From: a virus
Taxonomy: Duplodnaviria; Caudoviricetes
Reading direction: 5' to 3' (one strand)
DNA length: 63,953 nt
IMG/VR virus record: IMGVR_UViG_3300009081_000013
Location: 1-63,953 of that record
Each line of letters starts with the position of its first letter. The stretch's first letter is position 1. The translations under genes and the position numbers were made by a program. The notes beneath the pieces were generated by a model. The model ran no database searches. It was not told the DNA's origin and saw nothing but the letters and a program-made list of their open reading frames with translations. Shown here in pieces: positions 6,266-53,674 of the stretch.

Positions 6266-6305
6266 ACGCACATGCACACATCAGAAACGGAGAAAAAGCA
6301 GAAAC

Positions 6306-6938: not shown

Positions 6939-6945
6939 CTCACAG

Positions 6946-6978
6946 GCGACGCGGTGTAAAAGCCGCGTCGCTTTTTTC
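6946..6978 (+). terminator. rho-independent terminator
   Basis: GCGACGCGG-loop-CCGCGTCGC followed by T6. Confidence 0.85.
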
Positions 6979-6988
6979 TGGAGGCCCC

Positions 6989-7147
6989 GTGGATAAAACC
7001 CAAACACCGATCACAATATCCCTCGCCGAATACGAAGAACTTCTCGCCGCGCAAGAAAAGCTGAACACGCTCGAAGCCTTTGGCGTGGATAGCTGGGACG
7101 GCTACGCTGCGGCTATGGAAGCGATGGAGGAAGAAGACGGTTCTTAA
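6989..7147 (+). CDS. small acidic protein with GVDSWDGY motif (not in ORF track)
   Basis: GGAGG RBS; MDKTQTPITISLAEYEELLAAQEKLNTLEAFGVDSWDGYAAAMEAMEEEDGS (52 aa). Confidence 0.75.
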   Translation: MDKTQTPITISLAEYEELLAAQEKLNTLEAFGVDSWDGYAAAMEAMEEEDGS

Positions 7148-7166
7148 CGATAGGGAGAACGTGGCT

Positions 7167-7451
7167 ATGTTGAAATCACCTGATAGTGGATGTCCTAAAG
7201 AGTGCCCTTGGTTTGTTGGAACTCACAACTGCCGAGAATGCGATGGTACTGAACGATTCGTGCGGTGGTTCATGTATGGGGCGCCGAGCAGGGCAATGTC
7301 CCAAGAAGAAAGAGCGTTTTTGGTCGAAGACGCCGATCATTGCGGAGAAGGGTTTTACCAGAGTGCCGAACTCGAAATGATGAGCGATAAAGATCTGGCG
7401 TCGGCAGCGTTGAACGCTTGGGGCATGTACGTCAAATCGAATTGTATTTAG
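7167..7451 (+). CDS. hypothetical protein
   Basis: GGAG RBS; Cys-rich N-terminus. Confidence 0.6.
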   Translation: MLKSPDSGCPKECPWFVGTHNCRECDGTERFVRWFMYGAPSRAMSQEERAFLVEDADHCGEGFYQSAELEMMSDKDLASAALNAWGMYVKSNCI

Positions 7452-9678: not shown

Positions 9679-9703
9679 CACCACACAATCGGGAACACAT
9701 AAG
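9675..9703 (+). promoter_or_regulatory. conserved phage promoter, copy 2
   Basis: TTGACA-CCACACAATCGGGAACA-CATAAG; 27/29 identical to 62675-62703. Confidence 0.8.
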
Positions 9704-9724
9704 GGGAGAAAAGGAGGAAAGCAG

Positions 9725-10399
9725 ATGCGACTGAATCAATACGACTTGCAATGGTGTGTCCGGCTGCTCCCCAAGGCGCTGCGCGACATAATGAAAAAAG
9801 AAGAGATTGTTGTCGCCGGCGGGTATGTTCGGTCCTGTGTCACACGCGAGACGGTGAACGACATTGATCTTTTCATCCCCGAGCGTGACTACGCTTTACA
9901 TCTCGCGGCGGCGTTGTCGGTAGGGGCGAAGCCTCACCGAACGGTCAACGCCATCACTGTCCGTGGGTTAAAATACCCGGTGCAGTTTATCACCCGCTGG
10001 GTGTACGACGCCCCACAAGAAGTGCTCTCTTCGTTTGATTTCACCATTTGCCAGGCGGCCTTCTGGTGGGATCACTACTGCCAGCGGTGGGCCAGCGCGG
10101 TGTCGGATGATTTTTACGTGGACCTTGCGGCCAAGCGGCTGGTCTACACCAATCCGGTGCGCGAAGAAGCGCCTGGGGGCAGCATGTTGCGCGTGCTCAA
10201 GTATTACCAGCGCGGCTACCGCATCACAATCAAGTCGCTGTCGGATGTCATCGCCCGGCTGGCCCACGGCGTGCGGTTTGATTACCGCATGGTGTGCGTT
10301 GACGAGTTGGACACGCTGCTGTTCGCTCACGTTGTCAAAGGCTTGCTTCACGAAGTTGATCCGAGCATCGACCCCGATCACATTATTGAGGAGAACTGA
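9725..10399 (+). CDS. nucleotidyltransferase (CCA-adding/poly(A) polymerase head-domain-like)
   Basis: VVAGGYVRS...NDIDLF and FDFTICQ motifs; ATG after AAGGAGG. Confidence 0.82.
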   Translation: MRLNQYDLQWCVRLLPKALRDIMKKEEIVVAGGYVRSCVTRETVNDIDLFIPERDYALHLAAALSVGAKPHRTVNAITVRGLKYPVQFITRWVYDAPQEVLSSFDFTICQAAFWWDHYCQRWASAVSDDFYVDLAAKRLVYTNPVREEAPGGSMLRVLKYYQRGYRITIKSLSDVIARLAHGVRFDYRMVCVDELDTLLFAHVVKGLLHEVDPSIDPDHIIEEN

Positions 10400-10401
10400 C
10401 C

Positions 10402-10653
10402 ATGGCCCACAACCAAATTCACCGAATGGTGCCGGAAGACGAAATCGAGCTGCACGTCACCGTCCTCTCCGACATCATGCAAAACGGTGTGCGCATGATC
10501 CAGGCGCAAAGCGTTCAACCCGCCACCCCGTCGTTCTGGCTGGCTGAAGGTTTCATCGATTACATGTATGACATGGAAGTGAACAAACCGAACGTCCTTT
10601 ACGTTCCTATTACGATCGCCCGGGAAGCGGGTGTGGAGGTGAAACGTGGATAG
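10402..10653 (+). CDS. hypothetical protein
   Basis: GAGGAG RBS, operonic. Confidence 0.65.
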   Translation: MAHNQIHRMVPEDEIELHVTVLSDIMQNGVRMIQAQSVQPATPSFWLAEGFIDYMYDMEVNKPNVLYVPITIAREAGVEVKRG

Positions 10654-11704
10654 ACCAACGAAAGAAGAGGCAATTAAAGAGTCTTTGATCCTGTGGCGCG
10701 AGCTGGCGACGAATCCGAAGCACGATGGCTTTACCGTTAAAAGAGGCGTTGTGCGCAGTCTTGTTTCCGATGGCGTGCTGCCGCCACGTGCGTTGCAGTA
10801 TGAAAACTCTTGCCCGTTATGCGCCTACAGTATGGAAGGCGACCGCGAGTGCATCCGTTGCCCCTGGCCGGGCAGAGGGTGTATCCGGTGTAAGCGCGAA
10901 GGAGTTTATGGCTTGTGGGTGAAACGACCGAGCCACGGCACCGCCCGCCCCGTGTTCGAACTGATGAAGCAGCTTGCCAAAGTCGAAGCGCAGCCCACGT
11001 TCAAGGTCGGCGATCGGGTGAAGCTGGTGGACATGAAGGGCACCGAAGACCAAGTCTACGCCGATGACCCTGTCAACCCGCTCTGGGGCGGCAAAGAAGG
11101 AAAGGTCCGTGGCACAGTGACCGGGCCTCTTAATGACCCCTACTATACGCTGTGCGTGAAGTGGGACAACGGCCAGGATAATCATTACGCTCCGCGCAAC
11201 CTCGCCCTGCTCACCGCCGCTGACGAGCAGCCCACCTTCAAGGTCGGTGATCGGGTGAAGTTGGTGAACCTGCTGTACGAAAACGGTGACGAATGGTCTG
11301 ATGGTAGCCTCAACCCGCTCTGGGGCGGCAAAAGAGGTAAGGTCCGCGGCACGGTGAACCAAGTAGGCATGCTCGCCGCCAGCGACCACTACTTGGTTAT
11401 TGGCGTCGAATGGGACAACGGTTTCAAGAATCAATACAACCAGCGCAACCTCGCCCTGCTCACCGCCGAAGAAGACCGCATCGACATCGTCGCAGGCCAG
11501 CTTTACCACCACGAGGGCCAGGTAATCCTGGCCACATACGATGATGGTTTCATCGCCTTCTATGATCTGAAAGGACACTCCGTCGCCAGTGACGGCGATG
11601 AAGGAGATGTGTTCTCAGCAGATTATGAAGGTTATGACGTTCATCGCAACAAGCTGATCCCCACCGGCAAATCTCTCCAGGATTTATATGCCCGAGCTCA
11701 GTAG
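10646..11704 (+). CDS. multidomain protein: Cys-rich N-terminus plus two tandem SH3-like (Mib/HERC2-like) repeats
   Basis: FKVGDRVKLV...NPLWGGK.GKVRGTV...WDNG..N.Y..RNLALL occurs twice. Confidence 0.75.
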   Translation: MDRPTKEEAIKESLILWRELATNPKHDGFTVKRGVVRSLVSDGVLPPRALQYENSCPLCAYSMEGDRECIRCPWPGRGCIRCKREGVYGLWVKRPSHGTARPVFELMKQLAKVEAQPTFKVGDRVKLVDMKGTEDQVYADDPVNPLWGGKEGKVRGTVTGPLNDPYYTLCVKWDNGQDNHYAPRNLALLTAADEQPTFKVGDRVKLVNLLYENGDEWSDGSLNPLWGGKRGKVRGTVNQVGMLAASDHYLVIGVEWDNGFKNQYNQRNLALLTAEEDRIDIVAGQLYHHEGQVILATYDDGFIAFYDLKGHSVASDGDEGDVFSADYEGYDVHRNKLIPTGKSLQDLYARAQ

Positions 11705-13197: not shown

Positions 13198-13587
13198 ATG
13201 AACGACCAACTGCAAACGGCTCTGGCCGAGATGATCAACAAGTCCACCACGGGCATTGAGAAAGCCAGCGGGTTTCTTCAAGCTGAGATCCCCGACGTGG
13301 TGCGCCAGCTTTTGCTCTGGCACGGTATCCAAGATTTTATCTGCTTTTGCACCGGGCTGGTGCTGTTGGCGGGGTGGGGTTACTGCCTGCGCCGCTTCGT
13401 GATAAAAAACTGGGCTGTGATCAAAGAAAAAGATGATAATGAAGGTTTCCTCATAACGATGTTGGCGCTTATATGTGGGGTGGTTTTGGTCATCCCATTT
13501 GCGTTCATCTTCCCCTTGACTTGGCTCAAGATCTGGATCGCCCCCAAAGTTTGGCTGCTCGACTACGCCGCGTCGCTGGTAAAATAA
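13198..13587 (+). CDS. membrane protein (2 TM)
   Basis: Two hydrophobic helices; C-terminal WLKIWIAPKVWLLDY. Confidence 0.75.
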   Translation: MNDQLQTALAEMINKSTTGIEKASGFLQAEIPDVVRQLLLWHGIQDFICFCTGLVLLAGWGYCLRRFVIKNWAVIKEKDDNEGFLITMLALICGVVLVIPFAFIFPLTWLKIWIAPKVWLLDYAASLVK

Positions 13588-13600
13588 AAGGAGAAAAGCC

Positions 13601-13813
13601 ATGCCCTACACCTACCCCGAAGAGGCCAAGATGGATGCGGCGAAAAGAACCGCCGCTCGAGCACAATGCTATCTTTGTCGGCATTTTCAAAAGGAGGTGT
13701 GGCTGGCCACAACGGTCGGTGTGATTGCTACTGCGCGGTGTCTGGAGAGCGGGAGCTGCTTTCCGGATGCCGCGCATTTGTGTGTGCGCTTTGAAGCAAA
13801 GGAGAAGAGATGA
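13601..13813 (+). CDS. hypothetical Cys-containing protein
   Basis: AAGGAG RBS; CYLCRHF. Confidence 0.6.
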   Translation: MPYTYPEEAKMDAAKRTAARAQCYLCRHFQKEVWLATTVGVIATARCLESGSCFPDAAHLCVRFEAKEKR

Positions 13814-14592
13814 CTTACGAAGCGTGGAACATAATTGAACCGATGCGCGAAGGCGAGTCCGGACCGGAGCGGTTTCAACGGTATCTTGATTACGAGCATG
13901 AAGCAAACAAAGCCTTCCAGCGCGGCGACCAGTGGAGCGCCTCGGAGATCAAAAAGGCTCTCGACCACTGGAGCGAGCACGTGGCGCTGACACCGAGGGA
14001 AATGTCCAAGAGCAAGGCCACCTGCACATGCGCCGACCCCGTTTACACCTGGAAGCGATACGATTCGCCGTCCGCAGAGAGTATCAAGCTGCGCGCCGAA
14101 GAGGCGAAGACAATTATGAGGGAGATGCTGGACCGCAGATTCTCCCACCTTGTAAAAGATGCATTCACTCCAAAGGAGAAGAAAATGGAAACCAAATACG
14201 AGTACAAAGTGGCAGATCACGCGAACTTGACCCCCGAAAACATCGCCAAGCATAGCCCAAGCGAAAAAGAGTTCGGGCGTTATTCGCTGTGGTATTTTGG
14301 CAGCAAGCGGGGCATGTTTAAAACTGAGCAAAACCTCGCCGCCATCGTCGAGAAAGGCGAAACAGTCTGGCTGGATTGGCTGGTGAGCAAGGGCTTGGTT
14401 GAGCGCACGGAGAAAAAGCGGAAGCTGACGATCGAAGACATGCAACTGTCAACGTGCCACGAAGGCGTGGCCCTGCGGGTGGGTTCTAAAACTGTGCTCA
14501 TTTTCGAGCCGGACGGGTGTGTCCAGCGTGTGCTCTCAGCCCAAACTCCTTTCATTCCTGTGGACAAAGACGGGAAGATCATCATCCGATAA
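13810..14592 (+). CDS. hypothetical protein
   Basis: AAGGAG RBS; last gene of the + arm; possible internal start at METKYEY. Confidence 0.7.
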   Translation: MTYEAWNIIEPMREGESGPERFQRYLDYEHEANKAFQRGDQWSASEIKKALDHWSEHVALTPREMSKSKATCTCADPVYTWKRYDSPSAESIKLRAEEAKTIMREMLDRRFSHLVKDAFTPKEKKMETKYEYKVADHANLTPENIAKHSPSEKEFGRYSLWYFGSKRGMFKTEQNLAAIVEKGETVWLDWLVSKGLVERTEKKRKLTIEDMQLSTCHEGVALRVGSKTVLIFEPDGCVQRVLSAQTPFIPVDKDGKIIIR

Positions 14593-19283: not shown

Positions 19284-20648
19284 CTATTGGTAGCTTCCAG
19301 TCCCATGAATTATAGTATTCACACCCATACGGCGCGCTGATTCTGTCTCATAAAAACTGTTCGCGTATTCTTCGATGTTCAGGTATCCATCGCTGTCTGT
19401 ATCGCTCAAGGCGTCGTTCGCGGACGGATTCATACCGTGAGCCGATTCCCATGCGTCTGGTATTCCGTCCGAGTCAGTGTCGGTTGGATAGGAGCCTGAA
19501 AGCGTGGGATACCCACCAGCTTCGGTCACGGTATCGTATAGCGTTCCCGTACCGTCCACAACCTGTTGAACAATGCGCGTATCAATCACATCTCTGTCCC
19601 ACGGACGCGCGCCGACAGAAGCAAGGACGCTTGAATAGATCGTTGAACCTTCCGCGAAACTCGTACCGGCCCCGGTAAATGCTGGTGTTCCGACCACGTT
19701 TTCTTCGTCAGTGTAAAAGTCTAAAGCTCCGTACCCGGAAGAGTAATTCAGCGTATCGTAAACAGCGGTTGTACCCGTATTTTCTGCTGGCAGGATCATG
19801 ACATGCGGCCAAACAGTATCCCAATTAAGGCCACGCTTTAGGTAGTTTCCTATGATATTCACGCGAAAGGTTTGCGTCGGATGGTCAGGATCGCCAATCC
19901 GTATTCCGTGCGTTTCGCGGTTGTAGAAGATGTTCGATATGATCTCTATCTCGTCTCCGCGAAGGAGAGGATTCCTGCTTTTAGTGTTGGCCAGAAGGTT
20001 TCGGTAGAATGAAATTTTAGACGACTGATAATGGAAATATACGCCCATCGCGTGGATGCCGTCAGGATGGATAGAATCCGCGAGCGCTTCTCCAATAAGG
20101 CAGCTTGAGATAGTGACGTTTGCAACATCTGGATGCCATGTTGAAATAGTTTCATCGCTGGCCCAAGTTAACGAGCAGTGGTCTATGATGTGGTTTGACG
20201 TGCCTGTTCCAGCGGATTCTTCTATTTGAACGCAATCTCTATTATCGACCGCCGATCCTGTGTCGGTGCGATCTCCTGGGCGGATAATAAGTCCTCTGGT
20301 AATCGTGTTTTTGCATTTGTACCGGATGCCTGCATTTGCAAGACATAGCCCGCCCGGTGAAGTCGATCCAAAAATGGTCATATTATCTTCATCGGCTATG
20401 ATATTATCGGTAAGCTGGATCGTGCCGGATGCTTTTACCACAATTATCTTAGGTCCTACCACAGCCGCCGCTGCACGAAGGCTACCTGTTCCGCTATCAT
20501 TGGTATTTGTGACGAAGACAAGTTGGGTCCCGTCAACTCTGCCTCCAGTAGCAGAAGCGCCGAAGCCTATCGCGCCCGGGAAAGCATTTAAGGCATACGC
20601 CTCAGATGATGAAAGAACAAATATCAATATGGCTAAAATAATCTTCAA
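19284..20648 (-). CDS. pectate lyase (PL1-like beta-helix) with signal peptide
   Basis: AFPGA.GFG..ATGGR, VTNTNDSGTGSLR, IIDHCSLTWASDE, RNP, C-terminal DTDSDGIPDAWE; N-terminal MKIILAILIFVLSSSEAYA. Confidence 0.9.
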   Translation of the reverse strand: MKIILAILIFVLSSSEAYALNAFPGAIGFGASATGGRVDGTQLVFVTNTNDSGTGSLRAAAAVVGPKIIVVKASGTIQLTDNIIADEDNMTIFGSTSPGGLCLANAGIRYKCKNTITRGLIIRPGDRTDTGSAVDNRDCVQIEESAGTGTSNHIIDHCSLTWASDETISTWHPDVANVTISSCLIGEALADSIHPDGIHAMGVYFHYQSSKISFYRNLLANTKSRNPLLRGDEIEIISNIFYNRETHGIRIGDPDHPTQTFRVNIIGNYLKRGLNWDTVWPHVMILPAENTGTTAVYDTLNYSSGYGALDFYTDEENVVGTPAFTGAGTSFAEGSTIYSSVLASVGARPWDRDVIDTRIVQQVVDGTGTLYDTVTEAGGYPTLSGSYPTDTDSDGIPDAWESAHGMNPSANDALSDTDSDGYLNIEEYANSFYETESARRMGVNTIIHGTGSYQ

Positions 20649-21832
20649 TGATAGCCGCCTGTGCCATAAATACGCGTACCGTTGCCGCCAAAAGAGCGTG
20701 CTGGAATTGGCGTCGGTGTAGGTGTTGGAGTCGGTGTAGGTGTTGGAGTCGGTGTTGCTTCCCCGCCGAATGTAATAGCCGCTGATGCCGGTGATATTCC
20801 ACCCGTTGAATCCACCACAAACAGGTATCCCGTATCGCCGGAGCTAAATAGCCCCTGATTTATCTGAGCCGTAATACTGTTAGCTCCCCACGACGTTGGC
20901 GTCAGCATAGTCAGTTTAGTGCAATTTGCGTATGTGGCGTTGTTTCCTATCTCCACATGGGCGCGAGCATTTGCTCCTGTGGCCACGTAGATGTCGTCCA
21001 TAATGGCTCCAGCACATGACGATGCGGTCAGCCATCCAGTAAACCTTATTTGCGTCCAATATGGCGAGTTAGCGTCAGAAAATATGCGCTGGTTTGTGAT
21101 AGTAGTAGTATTTATGCCGTCTGTCTGGTTTAAATCCTGCCATGTATAGATGCCATTCGCAGATGCCGGATTACTACTATCTGCCTTTAGGTAGACCGAA
21201 AACCGCATCCACTGGCCCCATCTCCAATTTAAATCTTGGTAGGTGTTGAACCCCCCACCGTTGCCGTCCACTTTCCAGCCGGGGGTATAAGTCGGAATAC
21301 ACAAATCATCATCGCCTACCGAACTATTGTTCGTCAACCACGTCATCTTCCAAGATGACGCCTCCGGGAAATTTCCTGGTGAAGATGTACCAGGAAAACA
21401 TTTTCCACCAGGTATTTGAACCCAATATGAGATATAAATCTCAGTCGCATTTGGAAATGTTACCGTATTGCCGAGGATGTATTGTGGGTATGACGTGGTG
21501 TCATCTCTTTCAACAAGGCCAGCGTAATTTCCTGTGACATGCCCTAAATTAGAATACCGGACATATCCTCCAACATCCACCACGCCGTACCATGAGCCGT
21601 AACGCGGGCCGGAGTTGGTTGAGTCCTGCCCATTGGTTTTGCCCGACTCGTCAAACGTCTCAAAGATTTGCACAGTCGGGCCATCGCCAAAAGCGCACGA
21701 TCCATCGGAGCAGCCTATAGTGACCGTACTTTCATCGGTGATCGTTCCGCTGACCACCGGCTGGTCAGGCGCGGCCCATAAAAATGACGGAAGCAAGAGT
21801 AACAGCAGCAGGGCATATTTTACTATTCGCAT
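20645..21832 (-). CDS. signal-peptide protein, probable jelly-roll/polysaccharide-lyase-like domain, PT linker
   Basis: MRIVKYALLLLLLLPSFLWA; Trp-rich beta pattern; (PT)n near the C-terminus. Confidence 0.7.
   Translation of the reverse strand: MRIVKYALLLLLLLPSFLWAAPDQPVVSGTITDESTVTIGCSDGSCAFGDGPTVQIFETFDESGKTNGQDSTNSGPRYGSWYGVVDVGGYVRYSNLGHVTGNYAGLVERDDTTSYPQYILGNTVTFPNATEIYISYWVQIPGGKCFPGTSSPGNFPEASSWKMTWLTNNSSVGDDDLCIPTYTPGWKVDGNGGGFNTYQDLNWRWGQWMRFSVYLKADSSNPASANGIYTWQDLNQTDGINTTTITNQRIFSDANSPYWTQIRFTGWLTASSCAGAIMDDIYVATGANARAHVEIGNNATYANCTKLTMLTPTSWGANSITAQINQGLFSSGDTGYLFVVDSTGGISPASAAITFGGEATPTPTPTPTPTPTPTPIPARSFGGNGTRIYGTGGYH
20710..20757. repeat. Pro-Thr linker repeat
   Basis: GTCGGTGTAGGTGTTGGA repeated; encodes TPTPTP on the - strand. 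Confidence 0.85.
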
Positions 21833-22599
21833 ACGTCACCTATAGCCGATGTCTTCACTAAAATTTGGTCATACCTGAAGTCGGAGCCACTGCCGTGCTC
21901 TGAACTCGGATAGGCTGCTACCCGGTCGGTTGTCCATGCGCCATTCGTCACCGTGATGGCATTACTTCCCGGCATCGTTACGGTTTCTGAAATCCGTAAC
22001 CATGCCTGCGCGTTGGCTCCGGTGCCTTTGGCCATGTAGTACCAGATGTGATACCATGTGTTCAGAGACAATGCTGACGTAGAACTGCTGCTCGTTCCCA
22101 TCCATGACAATTTCAGGGTCCGGTCGGTGTCCATCAATATGGCTACGAGCTGCGTAACGTCAGCGTCAGACGTTGATAACACGTCACTTCCATTGCTGCT
22201 TGGGCCAGTTGCTACATACATTATAAAATGGCCGTAGATGCTGCCCTGTGCAGAAAACGTCGTATAAGTATATGAAGGCGTATCCGACCCAGGTACGATC
22301 CTCAGAGACTGAGACCCCCTTCCCACGTTTGTGGTGTAGTTCTCATCCACTATGCCGCCAGTACTACCTACTGATTCTGTCCAGGATTCTGAGTTGTCAT
22401 AACCGGTGCCCTCGAAGTTCTGGCAGACAAGAAAGCCGGAACAGCTCGAATCGGCGCATGGCGTCGGAGTAGGTGTTGCGCCAGAAACGGCAATCACCAT
22501 TCCATCAGCTTCTACACCTTGTAAGCTGACAAAGGCGAGCCCCAACAATACTGCCGCTATGCAGATAGCGCATGCCGTATCTATTAGTTTTTTTAGCAT
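21823..22599 (-). CDS. signal-peptide protein, LamG/ConA-like domain
   Basis: Start overlaps upstream stop (TAATG); hydrophobic leader ending VEA; LNTWYHI motif. Confidence 0.7.
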   Translation of the reverse strand: MLKKLIDTACAICIAAVLLGLAFVSLQGVEADGMVIAVSGATPTPTPCADSSCSGFLVCQNFEGTGYDNSESWTESVGSTGGIVDENYTTNVGRGSQSLRIVPGSDTPSYTYTTFSAQGSIYGHFIMYVATGPSSNGSDVLSTSDADVTQLVAILMDTDRTLKLSWMGTSSSSTSALSLNTWYHIWYYMAKGTGANAQAWLRISETVTMPGSNAITVTNGAWTTDRVAAYPSSEHGSGSDFRYDQILVKTSAIGDVCE

Positions 22600-25500
22600 T
22601 AGTTCACCTGGTCCACGGTGTATTCGAAACACACCATCGCGTCAGTGTTTGTCCCACTGACAGATGTAGTATGCCACTGAATTACATCATTTGCGTCAAT
22701 GCTGGCATTGCTTAAGGTACCATCGTCCGTCGCTTGTGTTGAGGTTGCTGTGATGTCAGCAGTACTGTCAATGGTAGCACAGTTGGCACCGGCACTGTCG
22801 CATTCATCGAGATGACCAATGATGTTTGTCGCGCCTCGCTGGTTTACCCTCACGGCCCTGATTGTGATGGCATATGGCAGGCTTTCTACCATGTAATCAC
22901 TGGAAGAAGTGACAGCCGCCATGGTCGTGCATTTTGTCTGGTACGCTGGTAAGGTAAAGGCGGCTGCGCCGTAAGCGCGGATGCCCTGCCCTGCTCCAGC
23001 AGAGCTGTCAACTGCAATCTCTCCAGCGGCATCCGTGGTAGGATTCGCGCCGTTTGGCGCTTCAAAAGAAGTCGCGCCGCCAGCGTCAATTGCGCCAGCC
23101 AAAACTCCAATGGTTACAGTCCCGCCGCTAAGGTTGGAAGCCGCACCGATTGATCCTATCCCACCAGTAAATGCGACAGCGGGTGTAAAAGCAATCGTTG
23201 CGCTGGTGCCGCTGGCAAACGTCCAAAGGTTGGTCCCAGCAGTAGCCGTCAAGTCTTCGCTGTTTGCGAACCAGGAAAAAGCGTTGGAGATGTAACCTGC
23301 TTCGCCGTCAGCATTGGCAGCCGAGTTGCCCACGAAAGCCGGTGCCGTCTGGTTGCCGGTGTAGGTATTTGCCCCGAGTACCGCAAGGGTCCCGGTAGCA
23401 GCCGGAAGAGTTATTGTTGCTGCCCCAGCCTGCGAAGCGTTTGGAACGATGGTTGCCGAGTAGTCCGTTGCCCCAAGCTCATTGTAAAGGACCAGGGAAC
23501 CATCCTGACCGGCTTCGCCCAAGGTCAAAGCGTCGGTGGTTTTGTTGAACACAAACCCAGCGTCGGCTCCAATAGCGGAGCCGCCATCATTAAACTGTAC
23601 TTGGGTATCAGAGCCAGCAGCGGCAGCAGTAGGTGTAGCAAAAGAAAGAACGCCGTTTCCATCCGTCTGCACGAACTGGCCGGAATTACCATCTGTTGTG
23701 GGCATGGTGAGCGTGTAGCTCGCTGCCAGTGCTGGTACAGTAAAGGTCACTGTACTGGACCCGTCGTCGCTGTCTTCTGCGATAATAAGTTGACCAGCAC
23801 CTGTCGCCCCACGGTTGACCGTAAGGGCGGCAGAAAGGGTCTTGGCTCCGCTGATGGTCTGAGCATCCTGCACATTGACGACCGCTTTTTCTGAGCCATT
23901 GACAGAGTACTTCAGCTGGTCGGACGAGTCGGTTTCAAACCATAGGGCGTATTCTGAAGCGCCAGGAGATCGCCCGCCTGCGTTGTTGGCGAGGCTGATG
24001 TAAGACTCGCCGGCACCCACGACCTGAAAAGATGTGGCGTAGACAGTTCCAGACGATTCAATATCGCCCTCCACGAAGAGTTCGTTGGTTGCTGTGGCAT
24101 AGGTCGGCGCAACGGTCGTGTCGTCGTCAATCCATACTGCGTGAGAGTTTGCGCCACGAAGAACGGATTGGAGGGCGAGTGTGTCGGTGTCGGCGTTGCC
24201 AATGGTGAGCGAGCCGGTAAAAGTCTGGTCGCTTCCAAGGTTGGCCAGGGTTTGTGCGGCATCGACAAGCGTAATTGCCCGAGCTGTTGAAAGTCCGGTC
24301 ACTGTGATGTAACCGGTACCATCTGAATCGTAGAAGCGATCCACATGGCTGGAAGCATTAACATCATCAGCAGAAACGCGTTGATGCGTCGTGCCATCGG
24401 TGATGTTATCTATGCTGCGGTTTGTGACCTGCGTGATATTTGTCAGGGTGATGTTGTCGGCGACATAGGTGTCCGCGACGGCCGTTCCCTGCCAAGTGCC
24501 AGCCGAGATCGTTCCAGCGTTGGCAATACCACCTGAAAACGTGGTGGCCGGGGTGATCGTCACACCAGAAGCCCCGGAAGCTCCAATGGCTACGACTTCG
24601 GCAGAGGTGACACCAATAACCGAAATATCCGTGCCGGCAGCGTCCGCTTCTGAATAGATGTACCCTGCGTTGGGGAGGCGAATTGATCCTGCGTCAGCCG
24701 GGTCAGCACCGAGGGCTATGTGCGAACTTGCCGCAACCGAAGCTGCGCCGCTCACAGCATTGGAATCGTCAACACTTATGCCAGTTATCTCAGTAAGGTT
24801 GCCGGTTCCGCTGGTTTTGGTTAAGCGGTTGTCAGTGCCGTAACCAGCAGGGCCAAGAACGATTGTGCCGGTTTCGGCAGGAATGGTTACAGTTACATCA
24901 GCGCCGGGGTTCGCGCCGGACAGAGCAATTTCAAAGTCGTTTACCGTGGCACCTTCAAAGTAAAGCGTGTTGGCTGTATTACCATCCGATGCGCCATTGG
25001 TAAAAGCAGCGCCACTCGAAGCATCGCCTACGGCTGTGATGTCGCCAGAACCTGCGGGATCACCCCACTGAGGGTTGGCACCAGCGCCTTGGGTCTGGAG
25101 GAACTGACCGTTGACTCCAGGGCCAAGAGTCACCCATGCCGAGCCATTACCATAGAGGACGTTACCTTGGGTGGGAGTGGTAGCTGCGATGTCGCCAAGT
25201 TCATCGTCTGCGGCCTGGTAGGTCGTCGCGGGCAGGGTAGAAAGAACACCAGCGTCCGAAGATACCACCAGGGCATTCGCAGCGCCAGGGTAAGCTGTGG
25301 GGAGCGTCCATGTCAGGTTGGCCACCGAGTTGCCGGGGGAGAGTTGGGTGTAATTGCTGTTGCCGTCGTAGAGCCGAACATAGGTGCCGCCGTCGCTTGA
25401 TCCGTCCAGACAAGCGCCATCGGTGCAATCTCCTACGGAAAGAACGTCACCAGAAGACGAAGCAGCCAGAGCAGCGATAGCCTGGGCCACACGAAGAGGA

Positions 25501-26147
25501 GACATGGAGCGAAGACCAGCCTCTGTGCCAGCTTCCATCTCGTCTTGACTTGCAGCAGCCAGAGCGGGCTCGAAGGTGGCGGGATCGGTCCAGCCTGCCG
25601 TACCATTTGTATCCACGTTGAACAGGGCGTTGTTCACGGTAGGGTAGGCGGTCTGGAGTGCGATGCCCCAGTTCTCCGTAAAGTTTGAAGCGTAGAGGTC
25701 AAAATGGAACACGTTTTCTGCCGTGTTGTCGTACCAGCGGACAGTGCCTTTGGTCGTTCCGGCGACACCGACATGTAACCCGTCTGAGCCTGTGATGGTC
25801 AGACCGTAGAGCGACAGCGCAGAGTCCGCGATGCTCCCGTCTCCATCAGGATCAATGGTCGCCATCATGTAGTCAATGAAGGCGTCCTGTGAGACGGCGT
25901 GTGTTTTGTCGTCAACATAGTTCGCGGCGGTCGCGGCCTCGTCTTGGACCTCAACTGAGCCCGCGCCGGCCACCGCTACAGCGATGTCATACACCGCATC
26001 CGGGTACATAGAGACAAGCTTGGTGTCACCTGACGGTGAAGCAATCTGCGCCGCAGTGATCCTGGGCGGGGGCGGGGGATTTGCTGCTGACGCAGCCGTA
26101 GTCACCCCAAGAACAATCAACAACAGCAAGAGAAAAGTCCGTTTCAT
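22599..26147 (-). CDS. tail-fibre-like protein with N-terminal signal peptide
   Basis: Gly/Ala/Ser/Thr-rich; fibre-type motifs ASQDEMEAGTE...SPLRVAQAI, YTLTMPTTDGNSGQFVQTDGNG, GSDTQVQFND; leader MKRTFLLLLLIVLGVTTAASA. Confidence 0.75.
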   Translation of the reverse strand: MKRTFLLLLLIVLGVTTAASAANPPPPPRITAAQIASPSGDTKLVSMYPDAVYDIAVAVAGAGSVEVQDEAATAANYVDDKTHAVSQDAFIDYMMATIDPDGDGSIADSALSLYGLTITGSDGLHVGVAGTTKGTVRWYDNTAENVFHFDLYASNFTENWGIALQTAYPTVNNALFNVDTNGTAGWTDPATFEPALAAASQDEMEAGTEAGLRSMSPLRVAQAIAALAASSSGDVLSVGDCTDGACLDGSSDGGTYVRLYDGNSNYTQLSPGNSVANLTWTLPTAYPGAANALVVSSDAGVLSTLPATTYQAADDELGDIAATTPTQGNVLYGNGSAWVTLGPGVNGQFLQTQGAGANPQWGDPAGSGDITAVGDASSGAAFTNGASDGNTANTLYFEGATVNDFEIALSGANPGADVTVTIPAETGTIVLGPAGYGTDNRLTKTSGTGNLTEITGISVDDSNAVSGAASVAASSHIALGADPADAGSIRLPNAGYIYSEADAAGTDISVIGVTSAEVVAIGASGASGVTITPATTFSGGIANAGTISAGTWQGTAVADTYVADNITLTNITQVTNRSIDNITDGTTHQRVSADDVNASSHVDRFYDSDGTGYITVTGLSTARAITLVDAAQTLANLGSDQTFTGSLTIGNADTDTLALQSVLRGANSHAVWIDDDTTVAPTYATATNELFVEGDIESSGTVYATSFQVVGAGESYISLANNAGGRSPGASEYALWFETDSSDQLKYSVNGSEKAVVNVQDAQTISGAKTLSAALTVNRGATGAGQLIIAEDSDDGSSTVTFTVPALAASYTLTMPTTDGNSGQFVQTDGNGVLSFATPTAAAAGSDTQVQFNDGGSAIGADAGFVFNKTTDALTLGEAGQDGSLVLYNELGATDYSATIVPNASQAGAATITLPAATGTLAVLGANTYTGNQTAPAFVGNSAANADGEAGYISNAFSWFANSEDLTATAGTNLWTFASGTSATIAFTPAVAFTGGIGSIGAASNLSGGTVTIGVLAGAIDAGGATSFEAPNGANPTTDAAGEIAVDSSAGAGQGIRAYGAAAFTLPAYQTKCTTMAAVTSSSDYMVESLPYAITIRAVRVNQRGATNIIGHLDECDSAGANCATIDSTADITATSTQATDDGTLSNASIDANDVIQWHTTSVSGTNTDAMVCFEYTVDQVN

Positions 26148-26149
26148 TC

Positions 26150-26566
26150 TTAGCTCCTCTTGGCAAAGCGCAGTTTCACAACCAAGTTCTTCGAGTTGCC
26201 TACGTTGGCTGCATTGGTGTTCGCAGTGGCTGCTATCCTCACCGTCAGCGTGTTGTCCACAGCAGGATAGTATCCAAGGTCTTCATGGCCGCTTTGTCTT
26301 TCCTCTGCACCGGCCGCACTGCGGTCACTGCCCAAAAACATGCGCCCGGCATTGGCACTGGTGATGTAGATGCGATACGCTGTGGTCGGAGGAGCGGCTC
26401 CGGGGGTGGTGATGATTTCTCGCAGCTCAAGTCCGGAGAGTCCAGCCAGCGCGGTGTCGGGGATTGTGCCGTTGGCACTGTCCGACACGCAGGTCAGCGT
26501 CACAATCCGCTCGATCTTTACTTTGCCCGGGTTGGTGGTGCGGGTTTGAACAACTGTGCCTGCCAT
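26150..26566 (-). CDS. putative virion structural protein
   Basis: AAGGAG RBS; beta-rich; lies between the ejection and fibre genes. Confidence 0.6.
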   Translation of the reverse strand: MAGTVVQTRTTNPGKVKIERIVTLTCVSDSANGTIPDTALAGLSGLELREIITTPGAAPPTTAYRIYITSANAGRMFLGSDRSAAGAEERQSGHEDLGYYPAVDNTLTVRIAATANTNAANVGNSKNLVVKLRFAKRS

Positions 26567-26568: not shown

Positions 26569-29500
26569 TTATCTCTCCTTATCTTGTCGTTTGTGCATCT
26601 CGGCGAGCGCATCGCCTGAGACAAATCCTTCTTGCATCATTTGATCGAGAAAATCTTGGAACTCATCGGGCGGCATTTCCATTGAGAACATGTCGAGGTA
26701 CATGCCACGCTTTTTATTGCTGCTCGCGTAGGACAGGGCGCGGATGCGCTCATCTTCTCTGCCACCGGTTTGAATTGCCCTGAACCACGTTTCGAACTTC
26801 TTGAACGTGTAGTCCTCTGGAAGCAGTCCTTTTTGCCGGAGGTTATCATAGAGCGGAAAACGGTCTTCCGTCTTTGTAGCGTAGCCGTTCTTGTTGATGA
26901 AACTGGTGATCTCTTTTTTGGCTTTGAGCTTGAGCGCCTTGTCTTCTTTGTCCATCGCTTCGCCCGCTTCGCGGTATCGCTCGGCGTGGCCGGCATCGGT
27001 GAGGGTGAAGACGGCGGTGGTGAGGTTAGGGCCAAAGGTGCGCAGCTTATCTTTGATTGGGTCAGGCTCTTTGTCGAGGTCGCCGGTTTGAAAGCGGTGG
27101 ATGACTGACAGGCCAAGTTGGTTGGAGGTGTGCTTGATCATCTCCTTCGCCGCGTCCCAGCCGCCCACTTCATACACATCTTTGGGAAGGACGTTGCCCC
27201 CGGTATGATCATTGACTGGGTTGTTCCCCATCAGGTAGTACTGAATCAAATCCCACCCGGCGGCAAGATACGGGCCAGTGCTGTAGGGGATTTTACCCCA
27301 TACGTCTTTAGCCACGCCCGCGGCGCCGATGCCAGGGAGATCATCAGTGACGCCTTCGACCAGCTTATAAAACACCGAGCCCCAGAACTGTCCTTCGTAG
27401 TCTTCGGGGATCAGGAGCGCCATGGAGTTACCCAAAGAGGAACTTCCTTTATAAGTCCAGGGCAAGGGGATGACTGAGTAAGCTGTTTTCTGGTATCGAG
27501 TCAGGCCATCCATCGCTTTTTTTACGTAGGGCATGAGCTTTTGGCCATATTCATGCTCGGCCGCGGCGTAAAGCGCCAGCTTCGGAAGCACATTATACAT
27601 CACCGTCTTCCAAATGTATGCAGACTTGTCCTCCTGGAAGGACTCCCACGCGGAGCGCAGACCCTCTTTGTTCACGTTGGAAAAGAGGAAGATGTTGTTG
27701 GTCAGGGCATGGATGTTGCGGCTGCCCTGGCGCTTGAAATCGGGTGTGCCAACGCGCGTGCGAACAACATGCCCGATCTCGGAGTCGGCGCGTGTGCCCA
27801 TCTCTTTGAGGAACTTGTAACCAGCAATCTTACCGCCGATTTCAGAAACGCGGCCCCATTTATCCAAGTTGCCATATTTGATCTTGCGGATGACGCGGTT
27901 TTCCGACTGTTCCATTTTGTGGATGCCACGCTTCAGCTTCTGCCAGATCTTGGCCGGCCCCGTAGCCTGTTCGTTTACGCCAGGATCAAACACCACACCC
28001 CATTCTTCTTTAAGGCGCATGATCTCGTTGTCGCTGTTTTGCTCTTTGGTGCCAAAGACTCGCTCGGCGGTGAGCATTTTTCCCGCCATCATGTCTTTGA
28101 TGTCCTGGCTGCGGTCGCTGTGCCACACGTCGCGCCATGCTTCACCGTAGGCTTTCTTGTACGCCCGGGCCAGCTTGGGCAGGTTTTTGATGCGCGCTTC
28201 GGGCAAGTTTTTGATAGTGGCGCGCACGTCACGCATGACGTTTCGAATCATCCAGATCGGGTTTTTGCTGACAAGCAAATCGCGCAGCGGGCGATGAAGC
28301 AGGCCGATGACTTCGGCAGCTTTGGTTGCTTCGACCGGGTTCCATTTAAACGAATCAGATATTTCTTTGTTGACGATGTAGTCAAAAGGCTTGCCATCGC
28401 GCATCACCGTGAGCAGGCCCTTGGTTTCATCTTTAGGGTCCTTGGCTTCACGGCGCTTGGTGATTGGGTTGTAAGTGGTTTCTTTGGCCGGCTCAATCAC
28501 GCCCGCGTCCATCAGCGCATCCACCATGCTGGTCTTGGCTTTGTTGATGTGGGCGGCGCGCAGCAGGCTCATGTCCTGCATGATGGTGGCGGTGAGCGGA
28601 TTCATGGCTTCGTCCAGCCCGCCGATCTGGTGGAAAATTCTGCCGGCTACGCCGGCGCCATGCTCCACCGTGATGTGCTTGACATAACTTACTTTGGCAT
28701 ATTCGCCGCGGGAATTGAGGATGTCCATCACCGCAGGGGTTGTCATGCCAGATTTGGCGATGCGGGGGAGCACCAGTTCTTCCCTGATCTTACGGTAGGC
28801 TTTGGACAGATCCTCAAGCTTGTTGTACTTGGCGTCGCCGATCTGACGTTTGAGCGCGTCGAGCACCCCCTGCGCCGTTTTGGCGTCCAGGCCGCCCGGG
28901 CTGAAAATGTCTTTACGGTTTTCGATGATGTGGCGGTTGAGCAGATAAGAGCCAAACTGTTTCACGTCCACACCCAGCTTGAGCAGCGGCTCGACGACTT
29001 CTTTGAGCGAAGCGTTGATGTAGTTGCTCACTTCGGATGCGATGTACTGAACTTCCTCCAGATCCGTCCTGGCCTTGCGCGCACGTTTGACCACATCTGG
29101 ATCGCTGGACTTTTCCATCTTGGCGACGTGCTTTAACATCTGCCGATTTTTGTCGATCAGCGCCGTGAACAAGGTGTCAGCGATTTCTTTGGGCGGGCGG
29201 AGCCCGGCTTTCTGCGCTTCGCGCAAAGCGGTGTCACCGCGCTCGAAACCTTCAACCTGATTGGCCAGGCGCCGATCACCGACCGCATCTGGCCCGCCGG
29301 CGTAAAGGTTGAGCACATCGTTGATTGCTTCGGAAAACTCTGGCCGCTCGGTGGCGTAGTTGTCCATGGCCCGGGCAAACGTCGGGGCGGTTTGGCGGAG
29401 CAGCTCGGGATCGTTCATCATCACCGACACCGCATCGGCGTAGAGTTCTTTGTCGCCGTAGCGGTAGGCAGTGTAATCCTCGTTCTGCTTGTCGTCGAAA

Positions 29501-31467
29501 GGTTTCCACTCTTTGGTCAGCGCTTTGAGTTCTTCCTTGATCTTCACCCGCTCGGCCGCCGTACTGTTTGGCATGGCGTTTGCCACACCGCCGGTGATCT
29601 TGGAGATGAAGTTCGGCAGTTTGCCTTTGATCTTGGCCATGCCGGGAAACCATTGGTCCCAGTGGCCAAGTTCGTGCATCAGTGTTTTGGTAGCGACGGT
29701 TGGATCTTTGCGATAAGCAAAAAAATCCGTCTCGCCGGTTTTGCGATTGTATTCTTTTGTGAACACCAGGCTCGCCGGATCGATCTTTACACTTTGCTTT
29801 GTCCGGTCCTGAAAATCCACAAACTTCTGATCGATGTCTGCCGCTTCTTCGGCGCGGGCTGTGGCTTTGTCCTGCGCCTTTGATTTTTTGGGTCGCACCG
29901 CTGCTGAGTTGATGCGATCGCCGATGGCCAGATCGGGGCGCAACACGATGTCGGAGGACTCGGCGTCGTATTCAAAGCGGCCGCGAGCGCGTGCATCTTT
30001 TACCACCTTTGGTACTTTGCCCTCATTAAGCTGCTTTACCATCTCGACAGCTTCAGGAAGCTGAATGCCATAAGGTGATTGCGGCCGGGGGGCGTAGGTG
30101 GAGGTCGCAGTGCCTTTGATCTGCGCCTTTGCACCAGTACGTGACTCATCGGCCGCCGACTCCATGTCATTTTCTACGGAGCGCTCTGTTCGTTTTTCCT
30201 GAACGGGCGACGTTTCTTGAACAGGAACATCCCGCCCGCCAAGAAACTCCGGCGTGTCAGGGCCGGCCGGCGGGGTCTGCTCAGGCATTGCCGACTCTTC
30301 ACCACCGAGAAACTCCGGCTTGTCGCTGGGGATCTTCGCCTCTTCAGCGATTTTATCCATCATACTTTCAAGATCGCCAACAACGTCGGCGGTGGCGTCC
30401 ACCCGGGCGTCTTCCTTGGCGGCCAGTTTGTTGTAGCCGGTGACGGCGCCTTTAACGCCCGCCGCCGCGCCGCCGAGCATGAGCCCCGCTACGCCGGCGA
30501 CCTTCGCCGCTTCTTTGGCGCTGGCTTTTGTCTCAGGCAAGCGCTTCTTGTATTCAGCCGTCCAGTCCTCGACTGAGCCGCCGGGGTTGTCGGCGTAGAC
30601 ATCGGCGGCTGCTTCCCAATATGATTGCGACACCTCTTCGCCAACTTCTGGCAGCACCAACTGAGGCACAGCCATGGCCCACTTGAGCACCTTGCCGCTC
30701 ACGCTCTTGGCAAACGGGCCGACCAGATCTTTCATCGCCCCAACCTGGAGCATGTTGCTGCCCTGCTCGATGGCGGTGGCGGGCAGCGCATTAAGCAGCG
30801 CCGCGTCCCGGGCCACCTGCGGGTCTTTGCCCTGCTTTTCATACTTGTCATACGACTGGCCATACATCGTCTGAAAGATCGCACCTGTGGCGGCCGGCTG
30901 CATACCGGGGATAAAGTTCATGGCCATGGGGATGGCTGTTGGCCCCACCGCCTTTACTGCTTTTTCAACCAGGCCCCCGACGCCCTCTGGATCGCCCGGG
31001 AGAAACTCCGGCATGTCCTTGGCGAACGTGTCGGCAGCTTTCTGATCAGAGCGCAGCTTATCCTGGATGAATTTATACATCGCCGGCCGCTGCTGGTCTT
31101 CGGGCAGCTCGGCGGCGATCTCTCCCCATTCTGCTTTATCCGATTCGGACAGCCGGGCAAAATAGCGCGCCATGGTTTCCGGCTGGCCGGGGGCGCCTGT
31201 GGGTGCTGCGGCGTTGCGCTGAGCAGAATCAGCCATGCCGCCTATCTGGGCGCCAAAGGCTTGGGCAGCAGAGCCCGCACCCTGCGCCACGGAGCGGCCA
31301 GCCTGGGATGCCAAGCGGTCGAGGGAAAACTCAGGCGTGCCTTGACGGATCGAGAACATGTGCTCGTCCGCGATTTCATCCATCGTCGCATCGAACGCAT
31401 CCACGGGGGCTTTACGGCCAGAACTCTCCCGCTCTATTTCGTCAAACAAGTCGTCGAGCTGGGTCAT
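26569..31467 (-). CDS. large internal virion/ejection protein (polyvalent-like, zincin HExxH motif)
   Basis: 1632 aa; LMHELGH...ELYAD; C-terminal DFKRQG...LFSN region resembles LPD38-type domains; synteny. Confidence 0.75.
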   Translation of the reverse strand: MTQLDDLFDEIERESSGRKAPVDAFDATMDEIADEHMFSIRQGTPEFSLDRLASQAGRSVAQGAGSAAQAFGAQIGGMADSAQRNAAAPTGAPGQPETMARYFARLSESDKAEWGEIAAELPEDQQRPAMYKFIQDKLRSDQKAADTFAKDMPEFLPGDPEGVGGLVEKAVKAVGPTAIPMAMNFIPGMQPAATGAIFQTMYGQSYDKYEKQGKDPQVARDAALLNALPATAIEQGSNMLQVGAMKDLVGPFAKSVSGKVLKWAMAVPQLVLPEVGEEVSQSYWEAAADVYADNPGGSVEDWTAEYKKRLPETKASAKEAAKVAGVAGLMLGGAAAGVKGAVTGYNKLAAKEDARVDATADVVGDLESMMDKIAEEAKIPSDKPEFLGGEESAMPEQTPPAGPDTPEFLGGRDVPVQETSPVQEKRTERSVENDMESAADESRTGAKAQIKGTATSTYAPRPQSPYGIQLPEAVEMVKQLNEGKVPKVVKDARARGRFEYDAESSDIVLRPDLAIGDRINSAAVRPKKSKAQDKATARAEEAADIDQKFVDFQDRTKQSVKIDPASLVFTKEYNRKTGETDFFAYRKDPTVATKTLMHELGHWDQWFPGMAKIKGKLPNFISKITGGVANAMPNSTAAERVKIKEELKALTKEWKPFDDKQNEDYTAYRYGDKELYADAVSVMMNDPELLRQTAPTFARAMDNYATERPEFSEAINDVLNLYAGGPDAVGDRRLANQVEGFERGDTALREAQKAGLRPPKEIADTLFTALIDKNRQMLKHVAKMEKSSDPDVVKRARKARTDLEEVQYIASEVSNYINASLKEVVEPLLKLGVDVKQFGSYLLNRHIIENRKDIFSPGGLDAKTAQGVLDALKRQIGDAKYNKLEDLSKAYRKIREELVLPRIAKSGMTTPAVMDILNSRGEYAKVSYVKHITVEHGAGVAGRIFHQIGGLDEAMNPLTATIMQDMSLLRAAHINKAKTSMVDALMDAGVIEPAKETTYNPITKRREAKDPKDETKGLLTVMRDGKPFDYIVNKEISDSFKWNPVEATKAAEVIGLLHRPLRDLLVSKNPIWMIRNVMRDVRATIKNLPEARIKNLPKLARAYKKAYGEAWRDVWHSDRSQDIKDMMAGKMLTAERVFGTKEQNSDNEIMRLKEEWGVVFDPGVNEQATGPAKIWQKLKRGIHKMEQSENRVIRKIKYGNLDKWGRVSEIGGKIAGYKFLKEMGTRADSEIGHVVRTRVGTPDFKRQGSRNIHALTNNIFLFSNVNKEGLRSAWESFQEDKSAYIWKTVMYNVLPKLALYAAAEHEYGQKLMPYVKKAMDGLTRYQKTAYSVIPLPWTYKGSSSLGNSMALLIPEDYEGQFWGSVFYKLVEGVTDDLPGIGAAGVAKDVWGKIPYSTGPYLAAGWDLIQYYLMGNNPVNDHTGGNVLPKDVYEVGGWDAAKEMIKHTSNQLGLSVIHRFQTGDLDKEPDPIKDKLRTFGPNLTTAVFTLTDAGHAERYREAGEAMDKEDKALKLKAKKEITSFINKNGYATKTEDRFPLYDNLRQKGLLPEDYTFKKFETWFRAIQTGGREDERIRALSYASSNKKRGMYLDMFSMEMPPDEFQDFLDQMMQEGFVSGDALAEMHKRQDKER

Positions 31468-52250: not shown

Positions 52251-52285
52251 AAAAACAGCCCCCTGTGTGTCATTTTTGATGCTTT

Positions 52286-52314
52286 ATTATACTGTCCAGA
52301 GCTGCGGTGAGCAA
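52286..52314 (-). promoter_or_regulatory. sigma70-type promoter of the methyltransferase
   Basis: TTGCTC-N17-TATAAT on the - strand. Confidence 0.65.
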
Positions 52315-52337
52315 GAAAAAAGCAGGCTGTGCCTCGA

Positions 52338-52480: not shown

Positions 52481-52493
52481 GGGCGAGGCGGGG

Positions 52494-53536: not shown

Positions 53537-53674
53537 GCGTCATTTTGGCGCACCTTCGAAAGCTATCAGCTCTATCAATAGCACCTATTGAAAAAGACAA
53601 TCGTGCAATTTGCACGAATACAGTACGCCGCATCTGCTCTCTATGAATATTTATTCGAAATGTGAAAATATTTG

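Follow-up and report, generated by a model that had tools for sequence, protein, structure and literature searches.

The window analysed here is the complete 63,953-bp contig of a tailed phage (IMG/VR virus record IMGVR_UViG_3300009081_000013; sole contig of its assembly). Two neighbouring late genes in it encode exported proteins of unlike fold, a predicted pectate lyase of 454 amino acids (aa) and a 395-aa jelly-roll protein, which end in closely similar peptides of about 18 residues. This shared C-terminal tag is a real and modular motif, selected at the peptide level. That it is a portable docking peptide, with the shaft of a neighbouring 1182-aa fibre-like protein as its favoured partner, is a serious possibility, although one that stops somewhat short of being probable.

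A shared C-terminal tag on proteins of unlike fold

The 454-aa open reading frame (ORF) terminates in ETESARRMGVNTIIHGTGSYQ and the 395-aa ORF in (TP)8-IP-ARSFGGNGTRIYGTGGYH, each directly before its stop codon (Table 1); these are the ends that a first-pass annotation, made from the letters of the window, had given for both proteins. The tags themselves (ARRMGVNTIIHGTGSYQ in the lyase) fit AR-x-x-G-x-N-(G)-T-x-I-[HY]-G-T-G-x-Y-[QH]-stop and are identical at 10 of 18 positions, with one gap. Aligned locally with BLOSUM62 the two tails score 38, a value matched by 3 of 20000 shuffles of one tail. Against the C-termini of 1412 other ORFs the lyase tail reached at most 30, and the 395-aa tail had one Gly/Thr-rich chance match at 39. 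Among 31 Gly-rich tails from relatives each of the two tags matched the other best (38, with next-best scores of 22 and 34), the pair ranking 8th of 465. A scan of all stop-to-stop frames of at least 20 aa, in six frames, found G[TS]G.[YFW] within two residues of the stop in these two proteins only.

Outside the tag the two proteins are unrelated, as the first-pass annotation had held: BLASTP gave no further segment between their bodies under an expectation (E) value of 3, and the lyase is a predicted polysaccharide lyase family 1 (PL1) β-helix, the 395-aa protein a jelly-roll. Eight of the ten residues identical between the two tags have different codons, so the tags have not arisen by recent copying or gene conversion between the two genes.

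A third copy is present in L139, a related viral contig of 61 kb. A 446-aa protein with a signal peptide ends there in VP-ARSFGGTGTIFYGTGNYR before the stop, identical at 14 of 20 positions to the 395-aa tail (E 2e-5) with many synonymous differences in the DNA, and these last 20 residues are its sole similarity to any protein of the window. The motif is real because this copy stands on an unrelated body in a related phage, and the shared tag claimed by the first-pass annotation is thereby borne out. Since the peptide has been kept while codons differ (at 8 of 10 residues within the window, and likewise at many third positions of the L139 copy), selection has acted on the peptide and not on a DNA recombination site. 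The consensus of the three tags is AR-[SR]-[FM]-G-[GV]-[NT]-(G)-T-[RI]-[IF]-[YH]-G-T-G-x-Y-[HQR]-stop. With three unrelated bodies (lyase, 395-aa jelly-roll and L139 446-aa protein) in two related phages, the tag is, to judge by sequence, portable.

The two tag carriers

The lyase matched pectate lyases in PHROG (27797, E 1.5e-50) and the PDB (9buj_A, E 9.5e-20). Its match to NCBIfam PelZ was strong (E 1.2e-43), yet far below the curated equivalog cut-off, and its score against Pfam PF00544 (22.1 bits) was just under the cut-off of 24. From these matches the 454-aa protein is a predicted member of PL1. Its TSP3-like Ca-binding repeats sit upstream of the tag and are also present in untagged homologues.

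The 395-aa protein has no family match in Pfam, PHROG or NCBIfam. An AlphaFold2 model built on a 45-sequence alignment (mean predicted local distance difference test (pLDDT) 86.3, predicted template modelling score 0.84) has a concanavalin A (ConA)-like jelly-roll framed by immunoglobulin (Ig)-like strands, while the linker and tag (residues 361-395) are unfolded (pLDDT 40-63). Foldseek matched the body to TtX122, the alginate lyase Aly36B (PL36), PL14, the glucuronan lyase PL20 and legume lectins, with E values of 1e-7 to 1e-5. Single-sequence searches of IMG/VR for close relatives of the two tagged proteins returned none.

Sec-type signal sequences, read by eye, begin the lyase, where the signal peptide has textbook form, the 395-aa protein, the 269-aa protein upstream of it and the fibre. 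Partners encoded by these four consecutive genes would therefore share one compartment.

Tag type and the fibre shaft

The 1182-aa fibre-like protein had 74 relatives at E ≤ 1e-3 and no sequence match in Pfam, PHROG or the PDB. Fibre 2 of L139 (1189 aa) is 81% identical to it over residues 55-996, the shaft, and has a different tip. Downstream of it come first a 263-aa protein, of a family other than that of the 269-aa protein (signal peptide, PAMLRVSGG, Thr-Pro linker), and then the tagged 446-aa protein. Upstream, L139 has a second module consisting of a 433-aa lipoprotein-type protein, a 375-aa protein that starts ..ADGLVIAAAGG and an 862-aa enzyme (Calx-beta, CBM5/12). The last 200 residues of the 433-aa protein are 53% identical to the tip of the 1182-aa fibre, and the 862-aa enzyme has a different tail, ..GLGIISGGGSATINGDGAGSITGQ (..GAGSITGQ-stop). 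In two further contigs (L140 and L141) the likeness to L139 is confined to the tip, and the tag is absent. The window phage and L139 differ in the family of the small protein encoded between fibre and enzyme. This comparison, small as the sample is, suggests that tag type goes with the fibre shaft and not with the tip or the family of the small protein; the pairing of shaft and tag resembles a natural swap experiment between phages.

Both fibre-like proteins of L139 (5036-6337 and 10001-13570) have lipoprotein boxes (..LSGC.. and ..MFGC..), and these speak for a structure that is exported and tethered to a membrane. In tailed phages such 'tail fibres', exported or lipid-anchored, are unusual, tail fibres normally being built in the cytoplasm.

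Two scaffolds had been put forward by the first-pass annotation. The 1182-aa fibre gains from tag type following the shaft. The other, the 138-aa protein encoded just upstream, would be in another compartment until lysis because it has no export signal; it has an L139 homologue (53%), so its co-occurrence with the tag also fits.

The 269-aa protein and linkage of its family to Gly-rich tails

The small exported protein encoded between the fibre and the 395-aa protein belongs to a family with 861 relatives at E ≤ 1e-3. Its AlphaFold2 model (pLDDT 88) leaves the N-terminal 58 residues unpacked, and Foldseek matched it to Cip1, PL20 and TtX122. Complex prediction for residues 21-395 of the 395-aa protein with residues 43-269 of the 269-aa protein, each with its own alignment, scored 0.00 in both runs, which were made without controls and speak neither for nor against binding.

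Searched with a hidden Markov model of the 269 family, the first 114 loci yielded members in 5 independent ones, each directly upstream of a gene with a Gly-rich tail (395-aa family or lyase). The family was present in 5 of the 12 viral loci having such a tail and in none of the 43 without one (approximately 2e-4, under a post hoc rule and including one false positive). The strict 'G-type' tail rule was too narrow and had caught a false positive resembling type IX secretion system (T9SS) substrates (L080), and it was replaced by a looser, uniform rule, under which tails were called on 10 of the 19 genes that lie directly after a 269-family gene. Linkage was tested independently on loci fetched through the 269 family itself, by a 16-sequence alignment: a downstream tail was present in 4 of 11 unique evaluable loci compared with 69 of 1562 background ORFs (approximately 1e-3). 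By eye, single-strand tails were also seen downstream of the family in L124/L128 and L129, and a Pro-rich tail in L122. The downstream proteins have diverse bodies.

The 269-aa protein has a peptide of its own after the signal, a hydrophobic strand and Gly followed by a Thr-Pro linker (DGMVIAVSGA-TPTPTP, residues 43-58, 22440-22510). Small proteins of L139 at 13570-14361 and 6268-7395 have like N-terminal peptides (PAMLRVSGG-TPTPTPSPTP and ADGLVIAAAGG, respectively), and ADGMVIAVSGA of the 269-aa protein resembles the latter, which comes from the L139 module sharing the fibre tip. The bodies of the small proteins that intervene between fibre and enzyme and bear such peptides are unrelated. The post-signal peptide may be a second, N-terminal tethered tag. 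An identity between the C-terminal tags and the post-signal peptides of the family (R-M-x-V-x-h-h-h-G-G-G) was considered and rejected as not above chance, only a likeness of style being kept: the lyase tag scored a mean of 13.9 against the N-terminal peptides of the family and 13.6 after shuffling, its maximum of 25 was reached by 127 of 300 shuffles, the 395-aa tag behaved similarly, and only 21 of 108 members of the 269 family fitted the three motifs tried.

Distribution of similar tails

Tails of the same style are widespread. They consist of a flexible Gly/Ser/Pro/Thr linker and one to three units of Gly-x-(Gly)-x-hydrophobic-x-hydrophobic, usually with a polar end residue, and they end secreted enzymes of several families on many viral contigs. 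About half of 14 metagenomic homologues of the 395-aa protein read as same-style (for example ..SGTMSIH-stop, ..SGTVRVH-stop and ..GHGKLTNGNGRINK-stop), and among 19 viral loci with homologues such tails are present in L001, L002, L003, L005, L007, L014 and L018. Lyase homologues have them in L082, L084, L095, L099, L114, P0016, P0052, P0080 and P0124. Homologues are mostly without any such tail. The check proposed by the first-pass annotation, a search for the motif in homologue C-termini, thus had a divided outcome: the exact motif is absent from most of them, and same-style tails are present in a minority.

Within pairs of homologues the tail is either near-identical or wholly replaced. This all-or-none change looks like a set of discrete tag types and not like drift, a pattern that weak constraint could also give. 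Some lineages have tails that are better conserved than the bodies (identities of 0.94 versus 0.54 and 1.00 versus 0.71). The lyases of P0124 and L099 (3254-4963) have bodies that are 100% identical and tails with two and three TGAGSVNY units, respectively. Tail pairs within a genome are somewhat more alike than those between genomes (mean score 23.6 versus 17.1, reached by 485 of 20000 random sets), a difference driven by the lyase/395-aa pair.

A tail of another kind, helix-like, is common to two neighbouring viral proteins of L004 (9207-10493 and 11087-13060), which end ..TNFI..G..K...A.KIG.SL-stop. Matched C-terminal tails on neighbouring late proteins suggest a wider habit.

Comparison with known docking and sorting systems

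Cohesin-dockerin systems resemble the present one in logic: glycan-active enzymes of unrelated kinds have the same module at the C-terminus, after a Pro/Thr linker, and have a scaffold in common (here a proposed one). A dockerin is a folded module of approximately 60-70 residues with duplicated Ca-binding segments (Pfam PF00404), whereas the tag has 17-18 residues and no such repeats. No dockerin was found in either tagged protein (Pfam scan, E ≤ 0.01) and neither a cohesin nor any other family in the 1182-aa, 269-aa or 138-aa proteins (Pfam, PHROGs). The term 'dockerin-like', used by the first-pass annotation, holds as an analogy and does not extend to the features of either module.

Tripartite sorting signals (LPXTG, PEP-CTERM, GlyGly-CTERM) combine a signature motif, a hydrophobic transmembrane helix and a basic cluster. 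The 18-residue tail has neither a hydrophobic helix nor a basic end, and gave no NCBIfam tail match at E ≤ 0.1. The T9SS C-terminal domain (PF18962) is a β-sandwich of about 70-100 residues; Pfam finds it in several lyase homologues, at the position of the tag, and in neither of the tagged proteins. The β-signal of outer-membrane proteins, with an aromatic last residue and alternating hydrophobics, ends a β-barrel protein. Here the last residues are Q and H, the ends (..H-G-T-G-S-Y-Q and ..Y-G-T-G-G-Y-H) are non-alternating and the bodies are a β-helix and a jelly-roll. In donor-strand complementation (chaperone-usher and type V pili) an acceptor with an incomplete Ig-like fold is completed by a donor strand; no chaperone or usher was found among the proteins scanned (Pfam, PHROGs).

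Bacterial homologues of both families very often end D-T-T-[AP]-P-x-A-P-x-G-L-x-V-x-stop (L020 2945-19706; L032 7586-14640; many loci L025-L073), that is, in a linker and the first strand of an FN3 domain, with the stop directly after it. On one Moraniibacteriota contig 11 tandem genes have a common FN3-strand tail, with an identity of 0.67 in the tail compared with 0.31 in the body. These orphan FN3 A-strand tails of Patescibacteria and other uncultured bacteria are like the phage tag in being on the same two protein families, at the same position, as a tethered single strand common to many neighbouring secreted proteins. They differ in being Pro-rich and recognisable as the first FN3 strand, whereas the phage tag is Gly-rich, possibly a hairpin, and matches no known domain strand.

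In L035 a secreted enzyme (10232-11074) ends ..PPAAPTGLKVT-stop, and eight bases on begins a 127-aa ORF (11082-11465) with an N-terminal membrane anchor and an FN3 domain matched from profile position 7 on (Pfam fn3, E 1e-7), the customary P-x-x-P-x-G-L-x-V beginning being absent; 7619-9856 and 9867-10214 are arranged similarly. The pair looks like a split FN3 domain, with donor and acceptor on two proteins, and the 127-aa product would be a possible acceptor.

Among phages, the available text of PMC6872550 describes conserved N-terminal peptides by which depolymerases of Klebsiella and K1-5 phages dock onto an anchor protein. The anchor-branch receptor-binding proteins of Klebsiella, K1-5/K1E/SP6 and G7C phages, as far as the available parts of PMC6872550 and PMC13352976 describe them, are like the present proteins in that a short conserved terminal peptide (7-11 residues or longer) plugs interchangeable depolymerases onto one anchor, in that the peptide type is specific to a phage group and in that the genes lie between those for internal virion proteins and those for lysis. 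Their docking peptide is on a second depolymerase and their anchor has a T4gp10-like branching domain. They differ in that their peptide is N-terminal, signal peptides are absent and assembly on the virion is cytoplasmic, whereas here the shared peptide is at the extreme C-terminus behind a flexible linker, the N-termini are Sec signal peptides and all components have export signals.

Large exported PilC/PilY1 proteins, otherwise dissimilar, likewise have a conserved stretch of approximately the last 10 residues that acts as an adapter to a fibre; PilC/PilY tails dock by β-strand augmentation, onto the minor-pilin complex of the type IV pilus (available text of PMC13711793). In that tail, according to the same text (PMC13711793), a Trp is conserved, and Arg-Glu with a hydrophobic run often comes after it. 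Both tags lack Trp and any such pattern, and no pilin genes were seen in the window.

The tag is neither a dockerin nor a known sorting signal. It belongs to none of the cohesin-dockerin, depolymerase-docking and PilC/PilY systems, from which it differs as a C-terminal, very short, Gly-rich peptide on exported phage proteins. Full-text literature searches returned no account of secreted phage enzymes with C-terminal tags of this sort.

Docking and the alternatives to it

As a docking peptide, the tag would be a unit of about 18 residues, one or two short β-strands with Gly turns, at the end of a flexible linker, and it would act after Sec export of the enzymes. Its strands would most likely be added to a β-sheet of a common phage-encoded exported partner, the 1182-aa fibre shaft being the favoured one, and different polysaccharide-degrading or -binding proteins would thereby be mounted on one structure. 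We infer binding itself, strand addition as its mode and the identity of the partner. The first-pass annotation had proposed a plug-in peptide that attaches interchangeable enzymes or lectins to a common scaffold, as a modular display system. The plug-in part agrees with the three unrelated bodies, the Pro/Thr tether, the unfolded tag of the AlphaFold2 model and a tag type that follows the fibre shaft; display on the virion is doubtful in view of the export signals and the L139 lipoprotein boxes.

Several observations weigh against docking. The exact tag is rare, degenerate DNA scans of IMG/VR having returned the L139 contig and one chance match outside any ORF (L144). In BLASTP of both whole proteins the tail is the top segment, but its E value of 0.45 is not significant alone. 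Between some close homologues the tail is far less conserved than the body (0.13 versus 0.51 for the lyase and P0016; 0.20 versus 0.59 for L001 and L003), and the difference of one repeat between the P0124 and L099 tails is a poor fit to precise strand insertion. The AlphaFold2 bodies of the 395-aa and 269-aa proteins are confident and apparently complete, with no evident open groove, and the tags have no similarity above shuffles to the fibre sequence. The correlation of shaft and tag comes from a single lineage, in which two phages have the tag and three proteins lack it, so that shared descent could explain it. Finally, both rules for calling tails were written after the data had been seen.

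The tail could instead be a short C-terminal address that the host envelope recognizes and that keeps proteins on the outer layers of the infected cell or lets them cross these; the phage would have copied it from secreted proteins of its host. An N-terminal signal peptide on every clearly tagged protein is in keeping with this, as are the T9SS domain at the same C-terminal position in other lyase homologues and the P-x-A-P-x-G-L-x-V-x tail so frequent in bacterial homologues of both families, with its run of 11 Moraniibacteriota genes. However, the known signals all misfit the tag, L139 has two tail types within one phage and hence within one host, and tag type goes, in a small sample, with a protein of the phage itself, the fibre shaft, so that we regard a host address as unlikely. 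A self-sticking β-hairpin or cross-β zipper, foldon-like, could also hold the two enzymes together as homo- or hetero-oligomers without any scaffold. Trimers are the usual state of phage lyase-fold tailspikes, a phage that has the tag on two enzymes could pair them through it, and the tails are made of one to three tandem G-x-(G)-x-h-x-h units whose number varies in otherwise identical proteins (P0124/L099; also L084, L082 and L119). Oligomerization leaves the correlation of shaft and tag unexplained, though, and hetero-pairing cannot be the role of the tag in L139, which has one tagged protein only; we consider it distinctly unlikely.

The tail might, lastly, have no function, being either what is left of a cassette junction, of low complexity and evolving fast, or a propeptide that is cleaved off once the protein has been exported. 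The BLASTP value for the lyase/395-aa pair would be expected of such a remnant, as would the frequent replacement of tails among homologues and the many homologues that are tail-less. Against it stand a peptide that is kept while synonymous sites differ (8 of 10 codons), its retention across phages on a different body (E 2e-5), the lineages in which tails exceed bodies in conservation and the enrichment of tails adjoining the 269 family. A functionless tail is very improbable. Docking onto an exported phage partner is the reading that we prefer.

Phage context and gene order

PHROG matches across the window include a portal (E 1.7e-70), large terminase, DNA polymerase, helicase, primase and exonuclease. 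The portal is 22-24% identical to portals of approximately 60-kb podophages of Proteobacteria (76 records matched, all below 60%), and because of this low identity the phage is considered novel. The late genes are on the minus strand, in the order terminase and portal, further structural genes, the 1632-aa protein, the 138-aa protein, the 1182-aa fibre-like protein, the 269-aa and 395-aa proteins, the 454-aa lyase, a small membrane protein and a cell-wall hydrolase (Hydrolase_2, E 8e-15). The coordinates of the module are given in Table 1.

Table 1. Features of the fibre-to-lyase module and of the other proposed scaffold.
Feature	Position	Strand	Basis or remark
454-aa exported PL1-type pectate lyase (predicted): Sec signal peptide, β-helix, two TSP3-like Ca-binding repeats, tag	19284..20648	-	
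Lyase C-terminal tag, ARRMGVNTIIHGTGSYQ + stop	19284..19337	-	Translation, end-motif scan, tail alignment
395-aa exported protein: signal peptide, Ig-like strands, ConA-like jelly-roll (polysaccharide-lyase or lectin fold), Ig-like domain, linker, tag	20645..21832	-	
395-aa protein C-terminal tag, ARSFGGNGTRIYGTGGYH + stop	20645..20701	-	Translation, end-motif scan, tail alignment
(Thr-Pro)8-Ile-Pro linker, 395-aa body to tag	20702..20755	-	Translation; tandem DNA repeat 20707-20757; pLDDT 40-63
269-aa exported jelly-roll protein: signal or anchor helix, DGMVIAVSGA, (Thr-Pro)3 linker, jelly-roll	21823..22632	-	Probable start Met12 (22599)
1182-aa fibre-like protein: Sec signal peptide, shaft (residues 55-996), separate tip (residues 978-1179)	22599..26147	-	
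138-aa protein, other proposed scaffold	26150..26566	-	Signal peptide absent

The TTG start of the lyase gene overlaps the TGA stop of the 395-aa gene (20645-20648), and Met12 of the 269-aa ORF overlaps the fibre stop by one base (22597-22601). These overlapping junctions suggest that the module, from fibre to lyase, is translationally coupled. Upstream of the fibre module the 1632-aa protein (26569-31467, minus strand) has a HELGH zinc-protease-type motif and no PHROG match. Both ends of the contig (1-233 and 63770-63953) are arrays of the same 24-bp tandem unit, ACGCCGCTGACGCTGCCGCTCGTT; these could be terminal repeats, or else mark a circular junction that falls within a repeat. The G+C content is 0.45-0.50 at 52001-56000 and about 0.55-0.60 elsewhere in the window.

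Implications

A bolder picture, tentative and on balance doubtful, is that of an exported, cellulosome-like kit. Its parts would be a long fibre (carrying a lipid anchor in some relatives), a small jelly-roll protein that bears a tethered strand at its N-terminus, and interchangeable glycan-degrading enzymes plugged in by a C-terminal strand tag of approximately 18 residues whose type is matched to the shaft. Assembly would take place outside the cytoplasm, either on the envelope of the infected cell or after lysis, by a docking code that would be new and have its counterpart in the orphan FN3-strand tails of ultrasmall bacteria. Export signals on the fibre and all its neighbours raise the question of the place and time at which these phage proteins come together.

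Should the tag prove to be a docking peptide, it would supply a simple rule for how environmental phages exchange polysaccharide-degrading enzymes on one scaffold, and a sequence mark by which such enzymes can be found in metagenomes. It would also be a natural plug of very small size, 18 residues, by which proteins could be attached extracellularly.

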